This document shows positions 6,045 through 63,329 of a DNA stretch of 64,000 bases, in pieces. Each line of letters starts with the position of its first letter. The stretch's first letter is position 1. Source of the DNA: Atractiella rhizophila (taxonomy: Eukaryota). The position numbers were made by a program, and so were the translations under genes. The DNA lies in the NCBI GenBank assembly GCA_021432655.1, contig MU271422.1, forward strand, positions 1 through 64,000. Reading direction: 5' to 3'. Below the pieces are notes generated by a model. It was not told the origin of the DNA. It worked only from the letters and a program-made list of their open reading frames with translations, and searched no databases.

Positions 6045-8006
6045 TTAAGTATTGCAAGAGAGCGGTGAGTACCTAAAGAGAGCGTCGCCCATTCGGTAGA
6101 GGATGGAGACTAAAGAGATAGAAGTTGGTTTGAGGTTATTGTGACCTGTTGTGACGATGACGAATGACCGGACGTGTAGCTGACGGTGTCTGGCGTTCCT
6201 GGGAGAAGTGCTCACGACCGTCCTCGATACAAACAGCGATGCGGAGGCACGTCGCATGTTGATAGGCATCAGAAGAAGCTGCTTTTCAATGACTTCTTTA
6301 GTGCAATAAAGTGGCACAAGTAGTGTCACTCGCTGTGACAGCTCTATTGCGGTAGTTAGAGGCCGGAGCAGAGGAATCGCAGACAATGTCCATTGGATGG
6401 CCGAGGACGGTGCACGACCCTCGATCTGCATGATGGAGAGCGATGAGGAGAAGCTCTTGAAGTTCAGTGATCCACAAACACCTGGGAACAAAGCCTCCAT
6501 AGCTCCAGAGAAAGACATGGACACGTGAGGGCTGATGATCCAGGAGATACCCTCCCACTCGAGCTTCTTCTTGTGATAACGTAGTGGTGGAGTGAAGTGG
6601 CGTGTCTGTAAATAGCTGGCCCTTCGTAGTACTGGAGCGTAAAAGCGAATGCGCATCTGCCTCATCTCTTCTTCAACGAACGATTCCAGCTCCTCCTCCC
6701 TCTCCTTCACATCGAGTTCTCTGGCCGCACGGGCCATATTCGACAGACTGGCAAACCGCGTCTGGCCCTCGTTACCCACCCACTCTTCCTCTTCAGAAAT
6801 CAAGGAGCAGATGCAAGTCCACATCTCCTCCCGACCGTTCGCGACATCAACTAACCCAACCTCCTTCGCCTCCCGCATCTCCCTCTACTCCACAATTCTT
6901 GCTCCCCTTTGTTCTCGATAACTAAACGTGTCGTGCTCACTCCCGTACAAGCCCATAGACAGGTAGCTGGGATTCAACACCACACCGTCTTCCCAGCCAC
7001 ACCATTGGAGCATGCAGCCGCCAGAGCCACTGCTCCTGCAGAGGCTTTTCAGCGCAGATGGGCGAGGTTAGCAGTCGGAGGCAGATTAGGGAGAGAGCGT
7101 TGATTGCCGTGATGTTGGAGAGATGGGCGTCAGCTGGAGAAGTCGAGGGCTCGATTAGTCCCAGATGGATGTCATTCGAAAAGTACACCATCGGTCACTG
7201 TAAGACGACCAAGCCTGGCTCGCGGTTATTGGCCGAAGGATTATCGTCAGCCTGAACAAATTCTTTGGTGCGAATGGTTACGTTACCGTTCGGGTGTGAT
7301 GCTCTTGACCAGCTCTTTCAATGTTTCGCAGTGTTTGCTGGAGAAAGTACCATTGTAGACTTCCCAACCGACGACGATGACCTCTCCATCCTCCCTTTCT
7401 TCATTGCAAAAGTCCAGATGTGTCCCCGCCCCACTCTCTTCTCCAGGTCCCTGGGCTCGATCTCCGTCACTTCATCCATCTTTTCCGGCGCTCTCCTCTC
7501 CAAAACACCGACAACAGGCACCGTTGGTTCGTACCATGCCTCCCGTCCGCCTTTGCTTTGGGTACTCTCGCATGAGTGATCCACGCCAAGCCTTCCCTAC
7601 ACCCGAGCAACACTGCCCCTCCCCTTTTTCTCCCTGTAACGTGTTTCTCACCTTCCCCTCGAAGGGGGACGGGGAGGCCTCGATCGTTCCTCCGCACAGA
7701 AACATGGCGGGACCGAGCGCTTTTCTCAGAATCCCAGGTTGGGAATCGGAACCGCGAGACTTGCCAGAGACGGAGACGGCGATCTCGATGAGAGGATTGA
7801 AGTCTCTTTCGGATGGATTGAAGAGAGGGGCCGCACAGAGGCATTGAGAAGAAGGAGAAGGCTGACAGAGGAAGGGAGGTGCGAAAATGCGTGGAGAGAG
7901 AGAGTGAGGAGGTGGAGACGGAGACAGCAGTGGATGGGATTCGGTGGAGGGTTTGGATGATGCGCGGTAGAGAATTTGGTCTCAGTCTCGAAGGTAGGTA
8001 GGGCAA
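6045..8006 (-). pseudogene. Fragmented hypothetical gene of unknown family
   Basis: Chain of protein-like ORF fragments in different frames (MPYLPSRLRP..., ...EIEPRDLEKRVGRGHIW..., MREAKEVGLVDV...). The 5' part is duplicated at 14563-15300. Confidence 0.3.
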
Positions 8007-8708
8007 ACTCGGAAGTAGCCCAGACAGGCCCAGCGTCGAACTGTGCCTTCCGTCAGCACCTTTTCTTTGTTAAGAATTTATTTGAGGGTATTCTCCGAAG
8101 AGACGAAAGAAATCGGAGGGAATAAGCACATCTTGGACGGGATGTGCGGTAGAGTCAGTGAACTTTATTGAGCTTCCATCGGCGAACACTCACTGCATCT
8201 TCCGCTGAGTGTCAAAGACAGCACGATATCGGACTGTTCTCGAGTTTGTTTGCTGAGTGTCAAGCGTTTCTGAACGATCGGAGAAAGAGTCTCAGGAGTC
8301 CCGTGAGTCTTAAATTTATCGACCCTGGCATGTCGACACCGAGATGAGGGATGAGTTGGAGTTGGGGGGATGAATTTTATGTTCTCCCTCGTCAATTCGA
8401 TATTGTGCAGCCTTCATACTCCATATCTCCATTGGCTCAAGCGGAAGCATAACTTCACCTTAGCCACAACGCCACTTCTTCTTAGGACCGTTTTCCGATC
8501 CGTTAGACAAGAGATCTTCAGTGCTGGATGGTTCATCCTTCTTTTTCCTAGCATTCATTCCTCCGTCTTGCGAGTTGACAAATTGATTAAGTTGCGCTAA
8601 GCTTCCCTCCCTTCTTATCCTCACATCTTCACATTCATCTGAATTTTCTTTCATGCATTCGTACGTACGTATCATTGGATCGGAACGCAGCGGTACTGTA
8701 TTCCGTAT
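7245..8708. repeat. Copy 1 of ~1.46-kb diverged direct repeat, upstream of the NLR
   Basis: Starts cgtcagcctgaacaaattctttggtgcgaatgg and ends ...gcagcggtactgtattccgtat. Colinear with 14563-16043, with substitutions and indels. Confidence 0.95.
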
Positions 8709-8874
8709 TCCTTGTTTCTTCTTCCTCTTCTTCACAGCCAGTTCAAGTATTCTTTGACCACCCTCCCTCCTGGTAGCTCTCGTCCAGATCTGACACGCAT
8801 TCTCTCAGTTTCGTCTCACGTTCAACAAGGAGTTCTGGGTCAATCGTCATCGTTTTCATCTCGTGCTCTAAGCG

Positions 8875-11800
8875 ATGGACGCCTCAGCCTTCGGAAAGAC
8901 GCCTAAGCCTTCTTCAACAAATCCCAGCAACCATGAAGACCCTGGGAATTTGTCTGACGACGACCACGCATTCAGCGCCGATCCGCGAGAAGTTCCTCGT
9001 CCTAATGAAGGGATCGGAGTACAAAATCTTTCAGTATTGCAGCTGTACTCTCAACCTATCCGTTTCCTGAGCACCAACCCGACAATTTTTGGCTCACAAT
9101 TTCGCTTCCTATCGCGTACCGCATCTCCTGTTGCCTCCAGATCTGTTACCCGAACACCTTTCTCGTCCTCCAGCCGATCCCAAGTTCAAACCATCAAGAT
9201 TTTCAAAGTCCCTGACAATGTCAAGAAGACGAACGAACAAGGACTCCGAATCCTCGCTATCGACAACGGCGGCGTCTGTACCTTCTCCACGCTTTACATG
9301 CTCGAAGTCGTCATGCTCCAGGTTGGCAACCTCCTCAAAGTCCACGAAGGAGAAGAAGTCCGGCCGTGCGACGTTTTCGATCTCATCTGTGGCACTTCCA
9401 CGGGAGGGTGGATCGCCCTCATGCTCGGAAGGTTGGGAATGACCGTTCGACAATCCATCAGCGCGTACGAAGAGATCGTGCAGGACGTCTTTTCCGGGGG
9501 AGCTCCACTTTCGAATGAAGACTATGCATGCTCCGCAAAGACGCTCGAAGCCGTCCTCCAGGAGATCATTACTCGACACGCTCCACTGTCTATCTCGTCC
9601 TCTCGACTTCCTATGAAGGATGTGGCAAGACACGCCGGTTTCGTTCTCGGACCTCCGCCATTTCCATTGGCGGCTGCTTGACGTTAGGCAAGTGACGTGT
9701 GATGTTCCTGCAGTCACACCATAAATGTGCTCTCCATTCTCTTGTATGGGACGTGCTCTGTAACTCGTCGTAGTGCGCGAAGCACTGGGTAATGAACGTA
9801 TATCCGAAAACAGGCTGGGTGCTGCAGGAAACAAGCGAGGGTGAGGAGGGTGAACTACGGAGGGTAGCACACCTGACTTTTCGCCACTATCGCTACCGGG
9901 TCCGGCGCTAGGACGTAGAAGTAGAAGTGGACTAGACGATGGACCCTTGTTAGAAGCTGCTAACGGAAGTGTCGCTCAAGTTAGAGCGCAACCCAGCCGG
10001 GGTTAATTGTCGGCCTCGCTAGGGGCTGGGGTCTCTCTGTTCTGTCCGCTGAAGCGAAGGAACAGGGGTATACACGAATCGGAGCAGTTAGCGATAACGG
10101 CGACCCAATAACAAGGGCTACTACTGTATAAGGCATAACAGCTACTGCTATCCTCCTTCCTTCCCTGCCCCCTCTCCTTCAGCGGAGAACGACGAAGGTT
10201 GTGGCATGTAGCACGTCGTCTTACTTGACGTAAACCGCGTAGCATGCACGCGCTTAAAACAACTTTGTTGACGCAAACTAAGCATGCAACTGTGTTGTTT
10301 TCAAGATGTAGATAGGGGTTANNNNNNNNNNNNNNNNNNNNNNNNNNNNNNNNNNNNNNNNNNNNNNNNNNNNNNNNNNNNNNNNNNNNNNNNNNNNNNN
10401 NNNNNNNNNNNNNNNNNNNNNNNNNNNNNNNNNNNNNNNNNNNNNNNNNNNNNNNNNNNNNNNNNNNNNNNNNNNNNNNNNNNNNNNNNNNNNNNNNNNN
10501 NNNNNNNNNNNNNNNNNNNNNNNNNNNNNNNNNNNNNNNNNNNNNNNNNNNNNNNNNNNNNNNNNNNNNNNNNNNNNNNNNNNNNNNNNNNNNNNNNNNN
10601 NNNNNNNNNNNNNNNNNNNNNNNNNNNNNNNNNNNNNNNNNNNNNNNNNNNNNNNNNNNNNNNNNNNNNNNNNNNNNNNNNNNNNNNNNNNNNNNNNNNN
10701 NNNNNNNNNNNNNNNNNNNNNNNNNNNNNNNNNNNNNNNNNNNNNNNNNNNNNNNNNNNNNNNNNNNNNNNNNNNNNNNNNNNNNNNNNNNNNNNNNNNN
10801 NNNNNNNNNNNNNNNNNNNNNNNNNNNNNNNNNNNNNNNNNNNNNNNNNNNNNNNNNNNNNNNNNNNNNNNNNNNNNNNNNNNNNNNNNNNNNNNNNNNN
10901 NNNNNNNNNNNNNNNNNNNNNNNNNNNNNNNNNNNNNNNNNNNNNNNNNNNNNNNNNNNNNNGCTCGCACTCTTCGAGGAGTCATATGGAAGCAACGAGG
11001 AGTCCTCGCTACTGGTGGTCCAACAGCTAGTTGACCAGCTAGACTTCCACGCTCTATCCATCAAGCTGTTCGCTCTCCGTGCGCAGGAGGATTCAACTAT
11101 GACACTCGAAGAATTGGTAGAGGAGTGGAAGGAGAAAAAGACACTTGTTTTCTGGAACGAAGACAGTGAAGATACCATCACGCTCAAAACATCTCTATCG
11201 TTCTCCCTCCATTCTCCCGCTCTCAAGAAGCAGGGGGAGCGTGCTGTCTTTGCACTCGCACTACTGTCTTGGGTGCCAGACGGTCTAGCCCACCATGACC
11301 TGTCAGCACTCATTTCCAGGTCTTATGAATCTCAGGATATCTTCAAAGTCATTGCTGTGATTTTAAAGATTGGACTTGCCGATAACATCAAAGGTACTCT
11401 CCGTATGCTTGCTCCTATTCGTGAATACCTCAACGAACTTGTCACCGGCTCCAAATCACCGTTTTCAATGCCCGTGGCTTGGTCGCTCCTACCTCTTGGA
11501 AGCCATCTCATGCAGAAAGCCGAGTCAAATATTGAACAGTTTGAGATCCACCAGGATCAACACGCACTGTTTCAATTCCGTGAACAATACCCAAACCTTG
11601 AACATGTCTTGCTAAGGAGCTTATTATGCCTGTCAAACCCTTTACCCATGCTGCGGCATTTGGAGAACACATCAGAGTTTGTACGCATGAAACATCGGCT
11701 CTCAACTTCGCTGTTACAACAGGCGACGCATGCCGTGAACACAGGGTTGGGAATGCCCCTGTATCCAGGTTGCAGAGAGTCTGAATGGTTAAGACTAAGA

Positions 11801-14298
11801 CGTTCACTGACAGAGTCCCTCGGCAATTGTTTTTACGACCATGGCAAGAACGAGGATGCTGTGAAGGCNNNNNNNNNNNNNNNNNNNNNNNNNAAGAGTG
11901 TTCAAACAACAGGACGGTCAAACGAGAGAGCGCGTAGACGAGAGAGCGTTCGGACGAGGGAGCGTTGATCTCCCCGTGAAACGTCCAACGTTGGGTAGCG
12001 ACTTGGTTTGAACTGGAAAGCGTTGACCTTCCGTGAAACGTGTAACGTCGGTTGGTCGTTGTACTTCGTTGGTGAAGTGCTGTCCAGCACTTCAACCACG
12101 GAAGTGGTACTTGGAGCATATAAACCCGCTCAAGTACAGCCCCGAGTAGGGCCGGAGCGCTTGGTAAAACCGACAACTCAGACTCGACTGTCCTGAGCTG
12201 CCACGCAAGGCAGGGCAGTCCAATCAAGGCAGTCGGTCTCGGAGTTGATCCGACTGCCCTGAGTGGGAACGGGACTGGGATTGAGGCAAGGGGTCGGTTT
12301 AAACTGACTACCTTGTCAAGGCAGGGCTTCCTTATCATCATCAGTTCGACCGTTCGTCTTGAGAGTCGTACTTTCTTCCGTCGTGACCTGTCTCTCCGTG
12401 GTGAGGTTAAGGATGAAAACAGCGCTGACGGGGAGGACACTAAGGAAGATTGTTCTCCTTCCGTCTACTAAGTCCCAAGTGTAGTTTGTTCGTTCAAGCG
12501 TAGAAAGTCGCGCATCGTGCGATAGTCGTCAAACTATCAGCGTAGCTTCGACTTAGAGGAGGGTAGGATCAGGGTCGAGACACCGCGTACCATGCCTTGT
12601 CAAGTCAGTGCTTCCTTATCATCATCCATCGACATAAGTATTTAGGAGGTAATACGTGTAAGTTACAACAACTATCAAGATGATTTTAGTGGTAGGTGTA
12701 CAACCGGCTAGACAAACTATAGAACGGGTCTAAGGGAGATCTTAGTACGAGACTAGTCAGACCGGGTATGTGGTCTTTTTAGTAGGAATGCAAGTCGGAT
12801 TAAACTATAGGAGACGAGATATACCAATAGCTTCCCCGACGTGTCTCAAACATTAACAGACTTCGTGAAATGAAAGGGCAAAACTAAAGGGTGAAGTTAT
12901 ATCTCACCAAAACGGAGGAGCTTGCGGAAGAAACGTAGGAGTAAGACCGGTGTAACTTTTAATTATAGGGGATAAAGTATCTACGTCAGCCGAAGTAGGT
13001 CAGCTAAGGGGTGACGTTATCTCACGGAAACGGAGGAGATTGCGAGAGTCACGTAGGAACAAGGCCGGTGTAACTTTTACTTGGAAGGGTTACGACGCTT
13101 GTGTCAGCCGAACTGGGACAGCTCTAGGGTGAAGGTACATCTCGTGGAAACGGAGAAGCTTTCGGAAATCTCGTAGGAGTAAGGCGGGTGTAGCTTTTAG
13201 TTATAGGGGTTACGACACTTGTGTCAGCCGAACTGGGACAGCTCTAGGGTGAAGGTACATCTCGTGGAAACGGAGAAGCTTTCGGAAATCTCGTAGGAGT
13301 AAGGCGGGTGTAGCTTTTAGTTATAGGGGTTACGGGGTTTGTGTCAGCCGAACTGGGACAACTAGAGGGTGAAGGTACTTCTCGTGGAAACGGAGAAGCT
13401 TTCGGAAGTCTCGTAGGAGTAAGGCGGGTGTAGCTTTTACTTATAGGGGTTACGGGGTTTGTGTCAACCGAACTGGGACAGCTATAGGGTGAAGGTACAT
13501 CTCGTGGAAACGGAGAAACTTTCGGAAGTCTCGTAGGAGTAAGGCGGGTGTAGCTTTTAGTTATAGGGGTTACGACACTTGTGTCAGCCGAACTGGGACA
13601 GCTCTAGGGTGAAGGTACATCTCGTGGAAACGGAGAAGCTTTCGGAAATCTCGTAGGAGTAAGGCGGGTGTAACTTTTAGTTATAGGGGTTACGGGGTTT
13701 GTGTCAGTCGAACTGGGACAGCTCTAGGGTGAAGGTACTTCTCGTGGAAACGGAGAAGCTTTCGGAAGTCACGTAGGAGTAAGGCGGGTGTAGCTTTTAG
13801 TTATAGGGGTTACGACGCTTGTGTCAGCCGAACTGGGACAGCTCTAGGGTGAAGGTACTTCTCGTGGAAACGGAGAAGCTTTCGGAAGTCACGTAGGAGT
13901 AAGGCGGGTGTAGCTTTTAGTTATAGGGGTTACGACGCTTGTGTCAGCCGAACTGGGACAGCTCTAGGGTGAAGGTACTTCTCGTGGAAACGGAGAAGCT
14001 TTCGGAAGTCACGTAGGAGTAAGGCGGGTGTAGCTTTTAGTTATAGGGGTTACGACGCTTGTGTCAGCCGAACTGGGACAACTAGAGGGTGAAGGTACTT
14101 CTCGTGGAAACGGAGAAGCTTTCGGAAGTCTCGTAGGAGTAAGGCGGGTGTAACTTTTAGTTATAGGGGTTACGACGCTTGTGTCAACCGAACTGGGACA
14201 ACTAGAGGGTGAAGGTACTTCTCGTGGAAACGGAGAAGCTTTCGGAAGTCACGTAGGAGTAAGGCGGGGTGTAGCTTTTAGTTATAGGGGTTACGACG
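8875..14298 (+). CDS. NLR-like receptor: patatin-like phospholipase - STAND/NB-ARC-like - TPR array; partly mirror-reversed in this assembly
   Basis: Forward 8875-9637: GLRILAIDNGGV...DVFDLICGTSTGGWIALMLGRLGM. Backwards read 10321->9677: CRTFVVSTY..KFRTY..CTVLEAARATS..NNPA..DEAKHIW..ACLVSLGSG..YHRFSV. Forward 10963-11868: LDFHALSIKLFA, SLSFSL.SP, LLSWVPDGL, LRMLAPIREY, then first TPR SLGNCFYDHGKNEDAVK. Backwards read 14298->12798: TPR units ending ...EQRISN-stop. Confidence 0.88.
9677..10321. other. Mirror-reversed (reversed, not complemented) segment encoding the patatin C-terminal half
   Basis: No sensible ORF in six frames. The backwards read gives patatin residues and an intact intron (gtatgt...ctgac...tgtag), with a few 1-nt indels. 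Confidence 0.93.
10322..10962. other. Assembly gap (641 N), expected to contain the Walker A/B part of the NLR
   Basis: N run. Its size (~210 codons) fits the missing NBD between the patatin domain and the LDFHALSI motif. Confidence 0.8.
11869..11893. other. 25-N placeholder gap at the start of the TPR array
   Basis: Exactly 25 N, falling mid-TPR after ...NEDAVKA. Confidence 0.95.
11894..14298. other. Mirror-reversed segment containing the TPR array, NLR stop codon and 3' flank
   Basis: The backwards read encodes TPRs matching the forward TPR before the gap. Its far end (...gagagagcaaactggcaggacaacaaacttgtgagaa) runs into the forward minisatellite at 14299 (cagcaaacttgtgaga...). Confidence 0.93.
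12841..14298. repeat. 120-bp tandem repeat: ~10 near-identical units plus 2 diverged units, encoding 40-aa TPRs when read backwards
   Basis: Unit read backwards: tac atg gaa gtg gga tct cga cag ggt caa gcc gac tgt gtt cac agc att ggg gat att gat ttt cga tgt ggg cgg aat gag gat gct cta aag gct ttc gaa gag gca aag gtg ctc = YMEVGSRQGQADCVHSIGDIDFRCGRNEDALKAFEEAKVL. TPR consensus G8, G15, A20, F24 and A27 are present. Confidence 0.95.
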
Positions 14299-14562
14299 CA
14301 GCAAACTTGTGAGATGGCCAACTCGCAAGGCGAACCTAAACGCTAGGTTGCAAACTCATGAGAATGCAAACTCGCAGGAATGCAAACTCGCGGGAATGCA
14401 AACTCGCGGAATGCAAACTCGCGGGAATCCAAACTCGCGAGACTGGGAACATGCGAGACTGCAAACGTGCGAGACTGCAAATGCGAGAGAGCAAACTCAC
14501 AAGACAGCAAACTCGTGAGACAGCAAACCCACGAGACGGCCAACCCGCGAGACAACAAACTC
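14299..14562. repeat. Degenerate ~16-bp minisatellite (gcaaactcgcgggaat / gcaaactcgtgagaca)
   Basis: Repeated gcaaactcg(c/t)g core at ~16-bp spacing. It continues in mirrored form at 11894-11960. Confidence 0.85.
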
Positions 14563-16043
14563 CGTCAGCCTGAACAAATTCTTTGGTGCGAATGGTTTCG
14601 TTACCTTCAGGTGTGATGCTCTTGACCAGCTCTTTCAATTTTTCATAGTGTTCAGTGGAGAAAGTACCTTTGTAGACTTCCCAACCGACGATGATAACCT
14701 CTCCATCCTCCTTTTCTTCAATGCAAAAGTCCAGATGTGTCCCCGCCCCACTCTCTTCTCCAGGTCCTGGGCTCGATCTCCCTCACTTCATCCATCTTTT
14801 CCAGCGCTCTCCTCTCCAAGCACCAACAACCGGCACGCTGGGGATCGTACCCTGCCTCCTGTCCGCCTTTGCTTTGGGTACTCTCGCATGGGTGATGCAC
14901 ACCAAGCCTTCCCTACACCCAGATAACACTGCTCCTCCCCTCTTTCCTCTCCCGGCAACATGTTTCTCACCTTCCCCTCGAAGGTGGGCGGAGAGGCCGC
15001 GATCAAGGGAGCGAGCGCTTTGCTTAAGGTCGCAGGTTGGGAATCGGACCCGCGAGGCTTGCTGGAGACAGAGGTGGCAATCTCGATAAGATTGAAGTCT
15101 CTTTCAGATGGATGGAGGAGGGTCGCTGCACATAGGTATTGAGAAGAACGAGAAGGCTGAAAGAGGTGCGGAAAGTGTGGAGAGAGTGAGGAGGTGGAGA
15201 CGGGTATAACGGCGGGTAGGGTTGGTGGATGGTTTGGATCGTGTGCAGGGTGATGTAGTGCCAGTAGAGAGGATTTGGTCTCAGTCTTTAAGGTAGGTAG
15301 GACAAACTCAGAAGTAGCTCAGACAGGCGCAGCGCCGAACTGTGCCTTCTGTCAGCACCATTTCTTTATCAAGAATTTAGTGGAGGGTTTTCTCCGAAGA
15401 GACGAAAGAAATCAGAGGGAATAAGACGCACCTCTTGGACTCTTGGACAGTCTAATGCATCTTCGGGATGTGTGGTAGAGTCTCAAGAACTTTGATGAAT
15501 GTACAAGCTTCTGGAACCCAGTCTCTGCCATGGGTGAACACTCACTGCATCGCTCTCTCACTCTTGAAGAGAGCAAGATTCCTGAGTTTTTTGTGCTGAG
15601 TGCCAAGTGTTTCTGCACAATCGGAGAAAGAGTCTTAGGAGTCCTGTGAGTCTCAAGTTTATCAACCCTAGCATGTCGACCTAACGAGGAGTGATGAGTT
15701 GGAGTTGGTGGGATGAATTTTATGTTCTCCCTCGTCAATTCGATATCATACAGACTTCATACTTCATATCTCCATTGGCTCAAGCAGAAGCATAACTTCA
15801 CCTTAGCCACAACGCCACTTCTTCTTAGGACCGTTTTCCGATCCGTTAGACAAGAGATCTTCAGTGCTGGATGGTCCATCCTTCTGTTACCTAGCATTCG
15901 TTCCTCCGTCTTGCAAGTTGACAAATTGATCAAGTTGCCCTAAGCTTTCTTCCCTTCTTATCCTCACATTCGTCTGGATTTTCTTTCATGCATTTGTACG
16001 TACGGATCTTTGGATCCGAATGCAGCTGTGCTGTGTTCAGTAT
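14563..16043. repeat. Copy 2 of ~1.46-kb direct repeat, downstream of the NLR
   Basis: Colinear with 7245-8708. Paired ORFs such as MNFMFSLVNS... (8370 and 15713) and MTRENIKFIPP... occur in both copies. Confidence 0.95.
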
Positions 16044-16937
16044 GATGAGCTACCAAAATCAATCGCTTGCCATTATAAATGCAGAAATTGGAGGAAATGG
16101 CTATCAATGTACAAGCAGCCTCAAAATTCTCTTCAAGGTTGTCAGCCTTCTCCAGACATATAGTTGATCGAATCAGCAAGGCCTGTGAGATAACGGTGTA
16201 AACACAGTGCATCCTTTAGAAAGTGCAGAAACGGTTATGCAAGCGACAGCAGTCTGTACCACCGACCACCATACAACAGGATTGGAGCCCCATGGGTTTC
16301 CCAAATAGAAAAAGTGCAAAGTGATCAATCTGATCCCCAAACCTGTATTGTTTCACTTTTTTGTGTTTCACGCTTGTGAACTCTGAGTTAATCTTTTTCT
16401 AGCTGTATTTTCGGTCACTTGGATCAAGTGGGAACTTAAAAAAGTGATACAAAAATGTGGAATCCAAGAAAAAGTGTGTTTTGGACAGTCCTAGTTGGCT
16501 CTGATTGTCCACATTTATCATATCCTCGTCCAACAGGCACACAGGATTCAAGGACAATCAAGCCCTGTGTCAGGCTTGCCCCTACGTATTACCGAAATGC
16601 ACCATCCGAGGTCACGTGACTCACTTTACCGTGTCATGAGATCACGTGCCTACCCATCACCGCTCTGCACATGTCTGCGCTGTTCGCTGCTTTCTCATTT
16701 CTCACACGAATTGCCGCTCAGCAAACCTTATACATTTCGCCGGTCTGCACCGTCTCCATTTTCGCCTTATTGTCCTTTCTCACGAGTGTGACCCAGTATA
16801 TCTTATTTCCGAGTATTCCCTTTATTACTTTCCTGATCTAGTTATCTTACACGTTTCAAGCAAAGTATGTTACGGTTTATGGCAGTGCCTTTACATATGT
16901 ATATATACATCGAGATGTAGTGGTGGTGACCTCAGCG

Positions 16938-17014
16938 TATTCTCTTAGGTTTACCTCCACTACAGGTTAGTCTTCTCATGACATACTATTCTCTTAGGTT
17001 TACCTCCACTACAG
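16938..17014. repeat. 28-bp direct duplication tattctcttaggtttacctccactacag
   Basis: Identical at 16938-16965 and 16987-17014. Confidence 0.85.
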
Positions 17015-17784
17015 ATGCATCACCCATCGGCGACCGCACATAGTGTTTGCCCTAACACCCTGAACAAGGAATGGATCGTTTGAGGAGTGACACCAGTGAA
17101 TCTATTCTTCTAAGATTCATCACTTTTTGGCATGAGTCATCAAACATACTTTTGAGCGTTCATACCTCCCTCAGTAGGCACGTTAAATTGAAATGAATTA
17201 CAACATCTGATTGCATATGCTTGTGCCTTTCTGAATCTACAAGGAAATTTTTTTCTGCAGAGGTCAAAAATGTGTCTCATACTGGACTAAAACCCTCACA
17301 AGGGTCAAAGTAGGGTCCAGGGGGCCATGCCCCTTGCGAGTGGGTTGGGGGGCCTGACGGAGAAGGCCGATGAATTGTTTAAGAAGAGATGGTTAATATT
17401 TGGAAGAGGAAACACGACGATTGGCATTGGTTAAGGGGAGGCAGGCATGTCAGTGTGTAAACCCAATCCTCCCGATATTTCGACCTGTTGTTTATGCAGT
17501 CTCCAGGAGACTGACCGCACATTTCCATATGCCCATCTTTGGACAGAAGCACGCCTCTGAATTTTGCAGCGAGACCTGAGCTGTATTCTTACCGTAAATC
17601 ACGTGACATTGTACGTCTTTCCTCTTCCCCTCCGTTCCGCTTCATAATCCATCTGATGGAACACATCCGGTAGCAGAGAAGGTGCAACCGACTTCGGATA
17701 GCCGTTTTATGAAGGAGATGTATAAAAGGCAGCTCGCTCACCTCCAAGGTCTCATCATCGAGCACTATAGCAGAAGAAAACAAG

Positions 17785-19264
17785 ATGCTTACTGGACAAA
17801 AGATCACCATCAAGGGTCTGCGCAAGAGCGCGACGATAGGGAGAATAGGTTACGGCCTGCTGAGCTTGTGCGTTTCTTCGTTGCTCCTTTCTTCGTGGGT
17901 TGACAATGATGAATAAAGGACGGCAAAGAACGACCTTGATCCTGTATCGGAAGCCCAGGCTATAGAAGCAATCAAGAGCGCCATAGACGGAGGTTCGACG
18001 TATCTGAACGCGGGTCCGGCTCTTTTCTCTCTCAAAATGCCTGACACGACTAACCTATGAATTGGACAGGCGAGTTCTACGGCCCTCCCTCCGACTTTGA
18101 CGCGAACATCAAGCTGCTCAATCGGTTCTTCAGCGTCCATCCCGAGTATGCGGACAAGTGTTTCCTCTGCGTCAAGGGTGCATTCGACATGAAGACGTAC
18201 CAGCCTAGGTGCTCGAAGGAAGGGTTGAAGGCGAGCGTGGAGAACATCACGAGGCTTTTGGGTGGGAAGAAGAGGCTCGATATGTTTTCCCCCGCTCGTG
18301 GTACGTATATCTCGCTCAAATCACCACCACATAGAGTTGAGTACCGATGGCGGTTGTTAGTCGATGCTACTGTCCCCATCGAGCAAGTCGCAAGGGATTT
18401 GAAAGCGTTGGTTGAAGAAGGACTGTTTGACTACGTGGGGATGTCCGAGTATGATCCTCTATTTCCCTCATTCAAGAAAAGTCTCAGACGACGACTGGGA
18501 ACAGATGCTCAGCCCAAACAATCAGGAAGGCACACGCAATCTGTCCTATCTCCCTTGTGCGCTTTTCTCCACACTTGTTCATGATACAACAATACTGAGT
18601 CTTTTCCGCTTTGGTATGCAGCTCGAAGAGGAATACAGCCCGTTCTCTCTCGATGTGGAGAAGAATGGAGTCTTGGATGCTTGCAAGGAATTAGGAATCC
18701 CGATAATCGCTTACAGTCCTATCAGTAAGCTCGGTGCTCTCCATAATGGAAGTCAGTTCACTCATATTCTGTATTACAGGCCGCGGAATATTAAGCGGTC
18801 AATGGAAGCAACCCACCGAGCTGGACGAAAAGGACCTTCGGAGGACTTTTGACAGATTCCAAGTCCGCTTCTCTTTCCTCTGTATTTCGACTTGCAACGT
18901 GGGCTCATGTTATGATTATTTCAGCCCGATAATTGGGATCATAATCAAGCTCTCGTCAACAAATTCCTGAGCATAGCGGAAAGAAAAGGCGTCACCGCTC
19001 CCCAACTCTGCCTCGCTTGGATATTGAAGCAATGGGAAGGATTCGTGCCTATTCCTGGAAGCGTATGTGCTCTTTGTCCCTCCAAGCCTTATTGTTGATT
19101 AGCGTATGCGAATACCATAGTCTAGGCCGCATGTAGTGCGAGAAAATCTGAAGGCTCTGGATGTGGTGTTGACGGATGAAGAAGCAGCTGAAGTGAGGGA
19201 CGCAGTGCAAGGTGTGGTGGGAGGGAGATACAACAAGTTCGTGGAGCATACCTTGGCTCTCTGA
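17785..19264 (+). CDS. Aldo-keto reductase (pyridoxal reductase-like), multi-exon
   Basis: MLTGQKITIKGLRKSATIGRIGYGLLSL, GEFYG, CVKG, LVEEGLFDYVGMSE, EEYSPFS, ACKELGIPIIAYSPI, PQLCLAWILKQWEGFVPIPGS. Confidence 0.9.
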
Positions 19265-59480: not shown

Positions 59481-62124
59481 ATGGGTGCCCCAGTCAAAGC
59501 CAATGCTCCTCCTGTGGACACAACTGAAAGAGTTAGACGCGTGCGGGAGCTCATGAAGCAGGAAGGTGTCGATGTTTAGTATGTATTCAAGAAAGCTTTG
59601 AGCAAGCTAACCGGTGTTGCTAGTATCGTGAGAAGTGAAGATGCACATTCGTCCGAGTATGCTCCTTTTTGATTCAGAAAAGTAAGCGACATTTATATGC
59701 ATGCAGATATGTTGCCGAATGCGACAAAAGGAGGGACTTTCTCACCGGTTTTACTGGATCAGCAGGACGTGGGAATATTTCTTGATTCATTCACGAAGTA
59801 CAGCGCTTACTGACTGACAGTGGCCCTCATCACACTGGACAAAGCTTACCTTTTCACGGATGGCCGGTACTTCTTGCAGGCATCTCAACAGTTGGATAGT
59901 AACTGGGAGTTGGTGAAAACGGGGTTGACGGGTTCGTTTCCCTTTGCCATTCACGTAAGACTGATTATGGCTCGTAGACGATATGACGCCGTACAAGTTC
60001 ATCAAGACCAAACTTCCGGCAACGACTCGGATCGGTGTGGATCCTATGTCTTATCCTTACCGTCCGTTACACTTCCTGTCCCTTTCATCTTTCCGACTGT
60101 GTGATTCGTAGCGGACGCGAAAGAGTTTCGTGACCTCCTTTCCGCTACCGGAGGAGCCGTAGTTTCTTTATCGGTGAATATTGGAGAGAAAGTGTGGGAA
60201 GAGTCGTCTACGCGACCTAAGCGAGACCTGAATGCAATTACCGTTTTGAGCGAGGATTTCTGCGGCAAGAGCTTCGAGAGCAAGGTCGAGGATTTGGTCA
60301 AGACTATAAAGGAAGAGGGCGGAGTAGGGTATTTCTCTGGTTTGTTTCTCTTCCGAATCTATCGCCTGGCGCCAGCTTATGGTTGTCAAAGCCAAATTGG
60401 ACGATATTGCCTGGTTGTTCAACCTCAGAGGAACCGACGTCGAATATAACCCAGTCTTCTTTTCCTACGCATGGATACCGATTGAGGGTGACCCTGTCCT
60501 GTTCATCCACGCGGAACAGGTATCAGAGAACCTAAAGAAGCATCTGAGCGGGAAGGTGAAAATTGAAGAGTACCAGAAGGTCAGAGAATGGATGGAAAAC
60601 TATACTAAGTCTGTCAAAAAGGACGAGAAGGTTGGTTGATCCTGCCTAGTATGGAATACCACTAACATGGGACCTGATTTGAGGTACTCCTCGGAGTCGA
60701 GACATCCGTGGCTCTAGTCGACCTCTTCGCGTCAGATCAGGTCAAACTCATCGCCTCTCCCATCGCTCTCGCTAAAGCGGTAAAAAATGCCAAAGAGATC
60801 GAGGGCTTTCGCCAATCACACATCCGCGATGGTGCAGCTCTGGTAAGTCTCCGTTATCCACTAGCTGTCGACTGAAATGAAGAACAGGTATCATATTTCG
60901 CTTGGTTGGAGGAAGAGTTACTCAATGGCAAGGAGATTTCAGAGGTGGAAGGAGCCGACGAGCTTGAGCGGAGGCGCTCGTAAGTTGTATCTCACTGTGT
61001 TCGACTAACTCTGCTCAACGACAGCAAACAGGCAGTTGAAACATTACAGAGGGCTCTCGTTCAACACAATCTCCTCAACTGGCTCTAACGCAGCCATCAT
61101 CCATTACTCACCAGACAGAGAGACATGCCCATTGATTAACAAAGACGAAGTGTTTTTTTTTTGTCCTGCAGAACTTGATTTATTCACCTGCCCAGATTTA
61201 CCTGTGCGATTCTGGGGCTCAATTTACGGATGGTACTACGGATGTCACTCGCACTCTGGTAAATTTCCATTTTCTTTTCCCCACGTCTTAACTTTCCTGT
61301 AGCACTTCACAACCCCGAAACCATTTGAGAAACGAGCGTTCACCCGAGTTTTGCAAGGGCACATTGCAATTGATCAGGTGGTCTTCCCTACTGGGACAAC
61401 TGGATATCGACTTGATCCTTTGGCGAGGAGAGCGCTTTGGAGCGACGGATTGGATTACCGCCATGGGTGCGCTTCCCCAGTTGGTCATCTTGCGATATGA
61501 AACTCACAATTGGTAGCACTGGTCACGGCGTCGGCCATTTCTTGAATGTTCACGAGGGTCCTCAAGGAATCGGAATGAGAATAGCATTTAACAACACTCA
61601 CCTCGTTGAGGGCATGGTGCTATCTAATGGCAAGCTACTTATTCGCATACCAACTCGCACTGAACCTACGTCCATAGAACCAGGATACTATGAAGATGGC
61701 GCTTTTGGTATAAGGCATGTTCGCGTTAAACAGAGAATTCAGAGATTAATGTCACTCTAGGATTGAGAATCTCGTCGTTGTGCAACCTGTGCGTCTTAGT
61801 CTAGAATTGCCCAGCTAAATACTAATGAATTACAAGCAGACGACTCCGCCAAATAACTTTGGTAACCAGAAATGGTTCAGATTCGAGCGCCTCACCATGG
61901 TGTGTCATCCCCCTACAGATGCGTCAACAAGTCTGAGTGCGTTCTTAGGCACCGATCCAGACAAAGCTCATCGATACTTCCATCTTGACCCTTTCTGAAA
62001 AGGAATGGGTTAACAATTATCACAAGGAAGTTTTCGAAAAAGGTTTCTCTCTGTTGGAGATATGAAAGACGAGAGAGCTCTGAATTGGCTGAATGCAGGG
62101 AAATATGAGGAGTGTCATCAGTAA
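59481..62124 (+). CDS. Xaa-Pro aminopeptidase P (M24B), multi-exon
   Basis: [105 protein letters not shown]. The 3' end has apparent indels next to the gap. Confidence 0.95.
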
Positions 62125-62183
62125 TACTCGCTTTATTCTCCTTGAATGGATTTCGTGCAAAAGGACTTTGCTTTGCTGAGAGG

Positions 62184-62983
62184 NNNNNNNNNNNNNNNNN
62201 NNNNNNNNNNNNNNNNNNNNNNNNNNNNNNNNNNNNNNNNNNNNNNNNNNNNNNNNNNNNNNNNNNNNNNNNNNNNNNNNNNNNNNNNNNNNNNNNNNNN
62301 NNNNNNNNNNNNNNNNNNNNNNNNNNNNNNNNNNNNNNNNNNNNNNNNNNNNNNNNNNNNNNNNNNNNNNNNNNNNNNNNNNNNNNNNNNNNNNNNNNNN
62401 NNNNNNNNNNNNNNNNNNNNNNNNNNNNNNNNNNNNNNNNNNNNNNNNNNNNNNNNNNNNNNNNNNNNNNNNNNNNNNNNNNNNNNNNNNNNNNNNNNNN
62501 NNNNNNNNNNNNNNNNNNNNNNNNNNNNNNNNNNNNNNNNNNNNNNNNNNNNNNNNNNNNNNNNNNNNNNNNNNNNNNNNNNNNNNNNNNNNNNNNNNNN
62601 NNNNNNNNNNNNNNNNNNNNNNNNNNNNNNNNNNNNNNNNNNNNNNNNNNNNNNNNNNNNNNNNNNNNNNNNNNNNNNNNNNNNNNNNNNNNNNNNNNNN
62701 NNNNNNNNNNNNNNNNNNNNNNNNNNNNNNNNNNNNNNNNNNNNNNNNNNNNNNNNNNNNNNNNNNNNNNNNNNNNNNNNNNNNNNNNNNNNNNNNNNNN
62801 NNNNNNNNNNNNNNNNNNNNNNNNNNNNNNNNNNNNNNNNNNNNNNNNNNNNNNNNNNNNNNNNNNNNNNNNNNNNNNNNNNNNNNNNNNNNNNNNNNNN
62901 NNNNNNNNNNNNNNNNNNNNNNNNNNNNNNNNNNNNNNNNNNNNNNNNNNNNNNNNNNNNNNNNNNNNNNNNNNNNNNNNNNN
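62184..62983. other. Assembly gap (800 N)
   Basis: N run. Confidence 0.99.
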
Positions 62984-63329
62984 GCGTAACTTTTTGGAGA
63001 TTGTCCATGCAGCACCGCAGCATTATTTATCAGGACATCAACTTTGCCTGATATCCTTTCAACGTCTTTAACCACTTGCTCTAGCTTTGAAGTGTATGCC
63101 TCGGTACCGCCTATCTCACCAATTTCGAAGACATGCACATTCGAGGCAGGAGTGTAAATGAAATTGGTTTTCGTGCGCACCAACGCGAATATAGTGTTCG
63201 ATGGATTCATAGAAAGCTGCTGCACCAAAGCCGAACCCTTATCCCACCCCGCGTCAACAATTGTATCTAGGAGGTAACAAAGGCAGTTACGATTCCTCGA
63301 GACGCTCCTGTGACCACGTAAGTAGACAT
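62984..63329 (-). CDS. Short-chain dehydrogenase/reductase, 5' part (remainder in gap)
   Basis: MSTYVVTGASRG-intron-GSALVQQLS...IFALVR...KVDVLINNAAV. Confidence 0.88.

Follow-up and report, generated by a model that had tools for sequence, protein, structure and literature searches.

The stretch analysed here (‘the window’) comprises the first 64,000 nucleotides of contig MU271422.1 from Atractiella rhizophila (GenBank assembly GCA_021432655.1) and contains, at 12910-14299, a tandem repeat with a period of 120 nucleotides (nt; 11.6 copies with 92% matches, as called by Tandem Repeats Finder). We consider it very probable that this array encodes the C-terminal sensor domain of a plus-strand fungal NOD-like receptor (NLR; a STAND NTPase) gene of patatin / NOD / TPR architecture, the record of which is partly ‘mirror-written’. 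In corrected order, the gene runs from an N-terminal region and patatin domain, through a linker (‘...PLPPPGSCFGR’) and a run of 641 N, to the rest of the NOD module with a further linker (10964-11868) and then, across a second gap, to the TPR array.

The array can be read as protein when the plus strand is taken backwards and left uncomplemented (the ‘reverse-only’ or mirror reading), where an open frame of 466 codons (14394 -> 12997) holds near-perfect 40-residue units; this frame is present in the reverse-only reading only. Neither real strand encodes a repeat protein at the array, as judged from stop-to-stop open reading frames (ORFs) of at least 100 amino acids, of which 27 overlap 8000-19000 and just one lies within the array (13244-13603, minus strand, 119 amino acids, with no Pfam match). 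Ten units are in phase (13066..14265, read from 14265 down to 13066), starting at 14265 and then at exact steps of 120 nt (14145 to 13185), each encoding 40 residues with the consensus, in position-16 phase, RNEDALKAFEEAKVLFMEVGSRQGQADCVRSIGDIDFRCG. Their mean pairwise identity is 94.1% in DNA (range 88.3-100%; 8 distinct units) and 88.7% in protein (range 77.5-100%), reaching at least 85% in 37 of the 45 pairs over the 400 residues spanned. Ahead of these stands the partial first unit of the assembled array (14266..14299), which begins at TPR position 5 (‘RSIGDIDFRCG’) and in which one extra G shifts the frame; behind them, at 12798..13065, lie two degenerate terminal units, a short tail and a stop codon (12800-12798 in the mirror reading), with a 1-nt deletion near 13020 shifting the frame in the degenerate units, to which two related proteins, P0004 and P0002, also match (13019->12852). 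Un-mirrored, the array thus holds at least 10 near-identical units plus the two degenerate terminal ones, and no further copies of the 120-nt unit were found within the 64-kb window in any of the four reading directions.

Two blocks of the record, at approximately 9630-10321 (block A) and 11894-14299 (block B, 2406 nt), are written reversed in place and not complemented, and this is a fault of the record, not biology; no DNA rearrangement gives reversal without complement, and the fault therefore lies in the assembly or in the preparation of the window. Block B, read from 14299 down, runs through the TPR array and its stop codon, then some 0.8 kb of non-coding 3' DNA, and ends in the first part of a 16-nt minisatellite; block A, read from 10321 down, encodes the rest of the patatin domain (its second half) and the linker as far as ‘...PLPPPGSCFGR’, with one frame change near 10010. 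Each of the blocks touches a run of N (10322-10962 and 11869-11893). The preliminary description of this stretch had noticed the reversal, speaking of ‘un-mirrored’ units, without treating it as a fault of the record. As written, the array is non-coding on either strand.

Reversal is supported by four independent lines in agreement, of which protein comparison is the first. In tblastn, the arrays of P0002 and P0004 match the reverse-only reading at 14295->12852 with E values of 1.3e-84 and 9.5e-69 (identity 39-55%), and have no match on either real strand of the window, while the patatin C-terminal half and linker of P0001 and P0002 match the reverse-only reading at 10251->9597 (E 2.3e-49). 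Across 164 proteins, the real strands are matched nowhere but in 9000-9999 and 10500-11999, and the mirror reading nowhere but in 9500-10499 and 12500-14999. One protein, P0009, crosses the joint itself, with residues 111-208 on the forward strand at 9358-9642 and residues 210-314 on the mirror at 10315->9998; where the forward part stops, the alignment resumes at the opposite end of block A, as fits a reversal in place.

The non-coding sequence behaves likewise. Aligned to the minisatellite at 14300-14570, the mirror of 11990->11894 scores 61; taken forward the stretch scores 19, as reverse complement 12 and as complement 16, and 200 shuffles average 16.3 (maximum 28). When block B is turned round, the 16-nt repeat becomes continuous across 11894|14300. 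Direction can also be judged from composition, by scoring each pentamer against its reverse after training on the window outside 8800-14600: the score averages +30.3 per 400 nt (standard deviation 25.9) and is negative in 23 intervals of 400 nt, 17 of which lie in 9601-10600 and 11801-14600, the remaining 6 being isolated and weak (-1.2 to -13.2). Since the score is negative over 11801-14600, the non-coding part at 11894-12800 is mirrored too; by the same measure, no further part of the 64 kb looks mirrored.

The fourth line comes from public contigs, none of which spans the array. One fits 11583-11868 with 0 mismatches and continues for a further 40 letters, which read in frame after ‘...GKNEDAVK’ as ALQEAKVLYME, that is, as a plus-strand TPR unit in normal orientation; a 20-nt motif taken from this continuation occurs 0 times on either strand of the window and 4 times in the mirror reading. 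The read-derived public runs that hold part of the stretch (X1 and X2) come from one sample, and their contigs are absent on 9804-10807 and 12063-14070 with the flanks covered, in agreement with the mirror reading; neither this pattern nor the content of the best public runs, which hold 0.40 of the sampled words of 11894-16300 (45% of that interval being normally written), was used as evidence. As to origin, the sequence was most likely written backwards while contig ends were being extended into the two gaps, a step that we infer from the blocks extending contig ends into gaps and from all three frame breaks of the gene lying inside the blocks, with none in the normally written parts, which together suggest lower-quality gap-extension sequence. 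A run of 25 N is the minimal gap of a common long-read gap filler, and the 25 N here would be in keeping with such a backward extension.

Turning to the parts of the gene outside the array, the N-terminal region and first half of the patatin-like phospholipase domain occupy 8875..9630 on the plus strand (the end being uncertain by about 10 nt). The forward ORF at 8872-9681 matches Pfam Patatin (PF01734; E 4.6e-08, 33.9 bits against a cut-off of 27.7) over profile positions 2-108 of 191 only, the second half being recovered in mirror block A, and public contigs fit the forward part up to 9626/9628. The 641 N at 10322..10962 stand at the place of the P-loop NTPase (NOD) domain in relatives, P0001 and P0002 having a weak NACHT match that follows the linker motif and precedes the part aligning from 10964 on. 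Judged by eye, the length of this run is close to that of the missing NTPase part, P0001 having about 185 residues there. The C-terminal part of the NOD module, a linker and the beginning of the first unit of TPR type (‘...LGNCFYDHGKNEDAVK’) follow at 10964..11868 on the plus strand in normal orientation, where public contigs fit with 0 other letters and tblastn gives a real-strand match at 10964-11662. The gap of 25 N at 11869..11893 falls inside the TPR array and is not true to size; a reading of it as a gap of true length was rejected, the contig continuation past 11868 not being followed by what stands after the N run.

On the patatin part at 8800-9630, public contigs from one sample pile up in many variants; at 9372, for instance, a T replaces C in 16 to 18 different contigs. 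This NLR gene seems to belong to a large family of close paralogs in the organism.

The 301 residues encoded by 10964-11866 have no Pfam match; a phmmer search against 1.84 billion representatives returned 198 relatives at E<=0.001, with P0001 the best match (5.9e-67, 58% identity) and the four closest relatives all being Atractiella rhizophila proteins. The relatives carry a GxxGxGKST motif, and their NACHT scores straddle the cut-off of 26.7 bits (P0002 above it at 27.9 bits, P0001 below it at 23.5 bits). P0002 and P0004 match PF13424 (TPR_12) with E values of 1.9e-49 and 1.4e-16, above the 30.1-bit cut-off, and a search of our own gave 15 matching proteins (E<=1e-10), among them STAND and CHAT proteins of bacteria whose units are 40 residues long, in agreement with the published occurrence of this class in all domains of life (PMC13449251). 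Canonical TPR repeats have small and large residues arranged in a pattern at positions 4, 7, 8, 20, 24 and 27. The consensus unit here places V4, I7, G8, G15, A20, F24 and A27 in canonical spacing, and departs from the canon in having D or H, not the usual aromatic residue, at position 11 and in its length, which exceeds 34 by 6 residues. An account of TPR structures (PMC1261162) supports the canonical pattern in part.

The fold can be approached through the AlphaFold model of P0004, which has pLDDT values (predicted local distance difference test) of 93-98 in its array and alternating helices at unit positions 37-13 and 17-34. Its best matches in the PDB are the STAND-TPR protein 6mfv and the TPR domains of LGN/Pins: the archaeal chain 6mfv_A at E 1.4e-09, and the LGN/Pins chains (3ro2, 4wnd) at E 2.6e-07 to 5e-06, with a template modelling (TM) score to the target of 0.58-0.81. 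Both share with the model helix-turn-helix repeats wound into a superhelix, with extended peptides bound in the inner channel; they differ from it in sequence, at 12-14% identity, and the repeats of LGN are not internally conserved and lie outside any NLR.

Among the ten units, 19 of 120 columns vary, in 15 codons; we claim no clustering of these columns in codons, random placement giving about 16 by hand estimate. Eleven positions vary in amino acid (2, 5, 6, 9, 10, 11, 13, 25, 31, 36 and 37), with D/N at 2, RS/HS/WG at 5-6, D/H at 11, R/Q at 13, F/Y at 31 and SR/DQ/YR at 36-37, along with variants confined to single units (E25K in one, K9/V10 in the last). Codons 5 (CGC/TGG/CAC) and 36 (GAT/TCT/TAT) have three states, several bases apart. 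Counted as single-step changes, 14 are non-synonymous and 5 synonymous (74%), where random change of the consensus gives 71-77%, and mean pairwise non-synonymous (dN) and synonymous (dS) divergence are 0.065 and 0.068, a ratio of 0.95.

What signal the variation does hold is in the placement of the sites, and this is modest. In co-crystals of the TPR domains of HOP, as described in PMC1261162, the ligand-binding positions are 2, 5, 6, 9, 12 and 13, and this set (6 of 40 positions) holds 5 of the 11 variable ones (hypergeometric P=0.0036, or P=0.016 without the sites that vary in the last unit only). On a helical wheel, positions 2, 5, 6, 9 and 13 fall within an arc of 100 degrees, with 11 opposite, and 36/37 at 120 and 220 degrees from position 2. 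The relative P0004, across its own near-identical units, also varies at 2, 5, 6, 9, 13 and 31 (P=0.0095). Two diverged arrays, P0151 (a metagenome TPR/CHAT protein) and P0152 (from Chthonomonadales), show no groove enrichment (P=0.97 and 0.25), because nearly all positions vary there. For selection, then, the data amount to groove enrichment beside a whole-unit dN/dS of 0.95, with 8 distinct, recombining units of 40 codons being too few for a site model.

Variants are exchanged between units. All four gamete combinations occur in 43 of the 78 pairs of non-singleton biallelic columns, implying a minimum of 5 exchange events, and two pairs of units are identical (3=4 and 6=9), with linked blocks of variants present.

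Much of the preliminary description holds on these counts: its roughly ten near-identical DNA units in a TPR array highly conserved internally, the variants that it listed (at 2, 5-6, 11 and 13, in the loop, and F/Y), all of which are present after un-mirroring, and their reassortment between units. Its statement that most differences change amino acids is correct as a count (14/19) and, as evidence, equals chance. It had proposed per-site dN/dS on un-mirrored units, for which the whole-unit ratio is given above; and its placing of the variable sites in the binding groove would apply to 2, 5, 6, 9 and 13, positions 11, 25, 31, 36 and 37 being off the groove stripe.

Drawing on the published behaviour of such arrays, we propose a scheme for how the receptor would work. 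Unequal crossing-over and gene conversion would keep the units alike whilst shuffling their variants, and the variable stripe on helix A (positions 2, 5, 6, 9 and 13) would line the concave groove and set the receptor's ligand. Ligand binding would then lead to NTPase-driven oligomerisation and release of the patatin lipase activity, and so to cell death, as has been proposed for patatin NLRs in fungal allorecognition.

Several points tell against a working receptor of this kind, or against our reading of its variation. Amino-acid change is not in excess across the unit as a whole, the 14:5 ratio being that of chance; three states occur at codons 5 and 36 alone; and positions 11, 25, 31, 36 and 37 lie off the groove stripe. 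The NTPase domain would be hidden by the run of N, with the putative NLR architecture taken from the relatives, and the probable membership of the array in the TPR family likewise draws on relatives and on residue pattern. The array abuts a gap, up to 16-18 paralogous contigs differ at one place, and the number and order of units may not be those of one real locus; X1 and X2, for their part, may be the source of the assembly, and hence not independent of it. Finally, with three frame breaks (near 14268, 13020 and 10010), this copy of the gene may be dead. The last point opens on to a decaying pseudogene, in which the frameshifts would be genuine and the units would differ through neutral drift within a dead array that conversion had homogenised in part, with no working generator of specificity; the dN/dS of 0.95 and the chance-like share of non-synonymous changes (74%, against 71-77% at random) would be expected of such a relic. 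We regard this as unlikely, though not lightly dismissed, given that the breaks occur only in the mirror blocks, the normally written parts (8875-9630 and 10964-11868) being open, which points to lower sequence quality in the blocks; moreover, the variable residues are enriched in the groove (P=0.004 to 0.016), the intact relative P0004 varies at the same positions, and several variants differ by 2-3 bases per codon and recur across units.

A slightly stronger rival, yet still well short of an even chance, is that the array is a product of assembly, in which the reads of several paralogous arrays, or those of a single longer array, were collapsed or joined chimerically, such that the reassortment is not that of one real locus. 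It begins, after all, at the 25-N gap, where the real contig continuation mismatches what follows; many paralogous contigs, 90-99% alike, fall on the gene (up to 16-18 at one place); the block is already mis-written; and long reads are needed to reconstruct highly conserved NLR arrays (as reported in PMC12222747). Set against this, the ten units keep exact 120-nt phase with regular junctions, the identical pairs (3=4, 6=9) and linked variant blocks look natural, and exchange between units or paralogs is itself natural for such arrays, so that even a chimera would report real variants. That the stretch is real as written, a non-coding 120-nt satellite whose mirror likeness to TPR genes arose by chance, we hold to be virtually inconceivable: beyond the record's own reading nothing speaks for it, and it would have to accommodate a reverse-only reading that is open for 466 codons and matches natural TPR arrays at E 1.3e-84, a second mirrored block of the same gene, and a real contig that gives forward TPR sequence past 11868. 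Very improbable, too, is a TALE-like code, built on the two-residue variable site of the preliminary description, by which the pair 5-6 of each unit (with the pair 36-37) would read one element of a linear ligand. TALE repeats and this array have in common near-identical tandem units with a paired variable site, and here 5-6 (RS/HS/WG) and 36-37 (SR/DQ/YR) each change jointly by multi-base differences and recombine freely; were it true, these modular letters would let the shuffling of units rewrite specificity predictably, and the specificity of TPR-NLRs could be read from sequence. The variation here goes beyond one pair, however: 5-6 shows just three states in ten units, as does 36-37, nine other positions vary besides 5-6 (eleven in all), 36/37 sit on a different helical stripe from 5/6, and TPR-peptide complexes appear, from the description in PMC1261162, to use several positions of neighbouring repeats for each ligand residue, and not a single repeat for each element.

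The gene, in our reading a patatin NLR with a sensor array of TPR units, thus joins a known class: fungal NLRs with near-identical TPR units, few variable groove residues and shuffling by recombination. Dyrka et al. (2014; PMC4986451) describe 21.2% of fungal NLR TPR repeat domains as highly internally conserved, their threshold being repeats more than 85% identical across at least 100 residues, and the present array falls within this (mean 88.7% over 400 residues). The same source reports that repeat number is polymorphic among Podospora isolates, and it places TPR sites under positive selection, as well as polymorphic ones, on the concave face. Concerted evolution together with diversifying sites on the binding face has been published for fungal NLR arrays of TPR, ANK and WD type (PMC4986451, PMC13449251), and a 2026 study describes the exchange of TPR repeats between such genes and a class found in all domains of life (PMC13449251). 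The repeat-shuffling mechanism that the preliminary description put forward had, accordingly, already been described. In common with these arrays (PMC4986451), ours has near-identical C-terminal units, few variable helix A codons, probably on the concave face, and evident exchange; what differs is a 40-residue unit, relatives in the Pucciniomycotina (Atractiella), a patatin N-terminus, a NACHT-like, not NB-ARC, module in those relatives, and a record that is mirror-written and interrupted by gaps.

In architecture, the closest characterised genes are het-z (PaPLP1) of Podospora anserina, a patatin + NB-ARC + TPR NLR (PMC13449251), and, in Cryphonectria parasitica, an incompatibility gene of the patatin NLR kind (patatin / NOD / TPR; PMC4986451), which share with ours the combination of patatin lipase, NOD module and TPR repeats, a known architecture of allorecognition and cell death. 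The likeness to het-z / PaPLP1 is one of architecture only, the best relatives here being uncharacterised Atractiella proteins at 41-58% identity. The WD40 arrays of HET-E/HET-D/HET-R (HNWD) in Podospora follow the same regime of high internal conservation, few hypervariable positions on the ligand face and gain, loss and shuffling of repeats, but form a beta-propeller, not a TPR superhelix, and are joined to a HET effector domain.

The biological gain is thus one more example, from a little-studied basidiomycete lineage, and it opens no new question. The practical consequence is more immediate, in that gene calls, translations and homology searches over 9630-10321 and 11894-14299 will fail or mislead until the blocks are turned round; the number and order of units in the array are not to be trusted without long reads.

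Elsewhere in the window, translations judged by eye only resemble an aldo/keto reductase (18054-18584, plus strand), a Xaa-Pro aminopeptidase (61500-62183, plus strand) and a short-chain dehydrogenase (62984-63200, minus strand); by that impression all three stand in normal orientation, so that the sequence beside the third N run (62184-62983) seems not to be mirrored. Just past the 3' region of the gene lies the 16-nt minisatellite (14300..14562, plus strand, in normal orientation; called by Tandem Repeats Finder at 14349-14560), whose other end is the mirrored 11990->11894, and of which public contigs contain length variants (joints 14521->14300 and 14543->14471). It is followed at 14563..16043 (plus strand) by the latter of the two copies of a 1.5-kb direct repeat; the other, at 7245-8708, lies about 7.3 kb upstream (families D3-D14, 71-98% identity in pieces). 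The two copies flank the NLR gene, and a public contig in which 16034 is followed directly by 8804 hints at either a tandem arrangement or paralogous copies.

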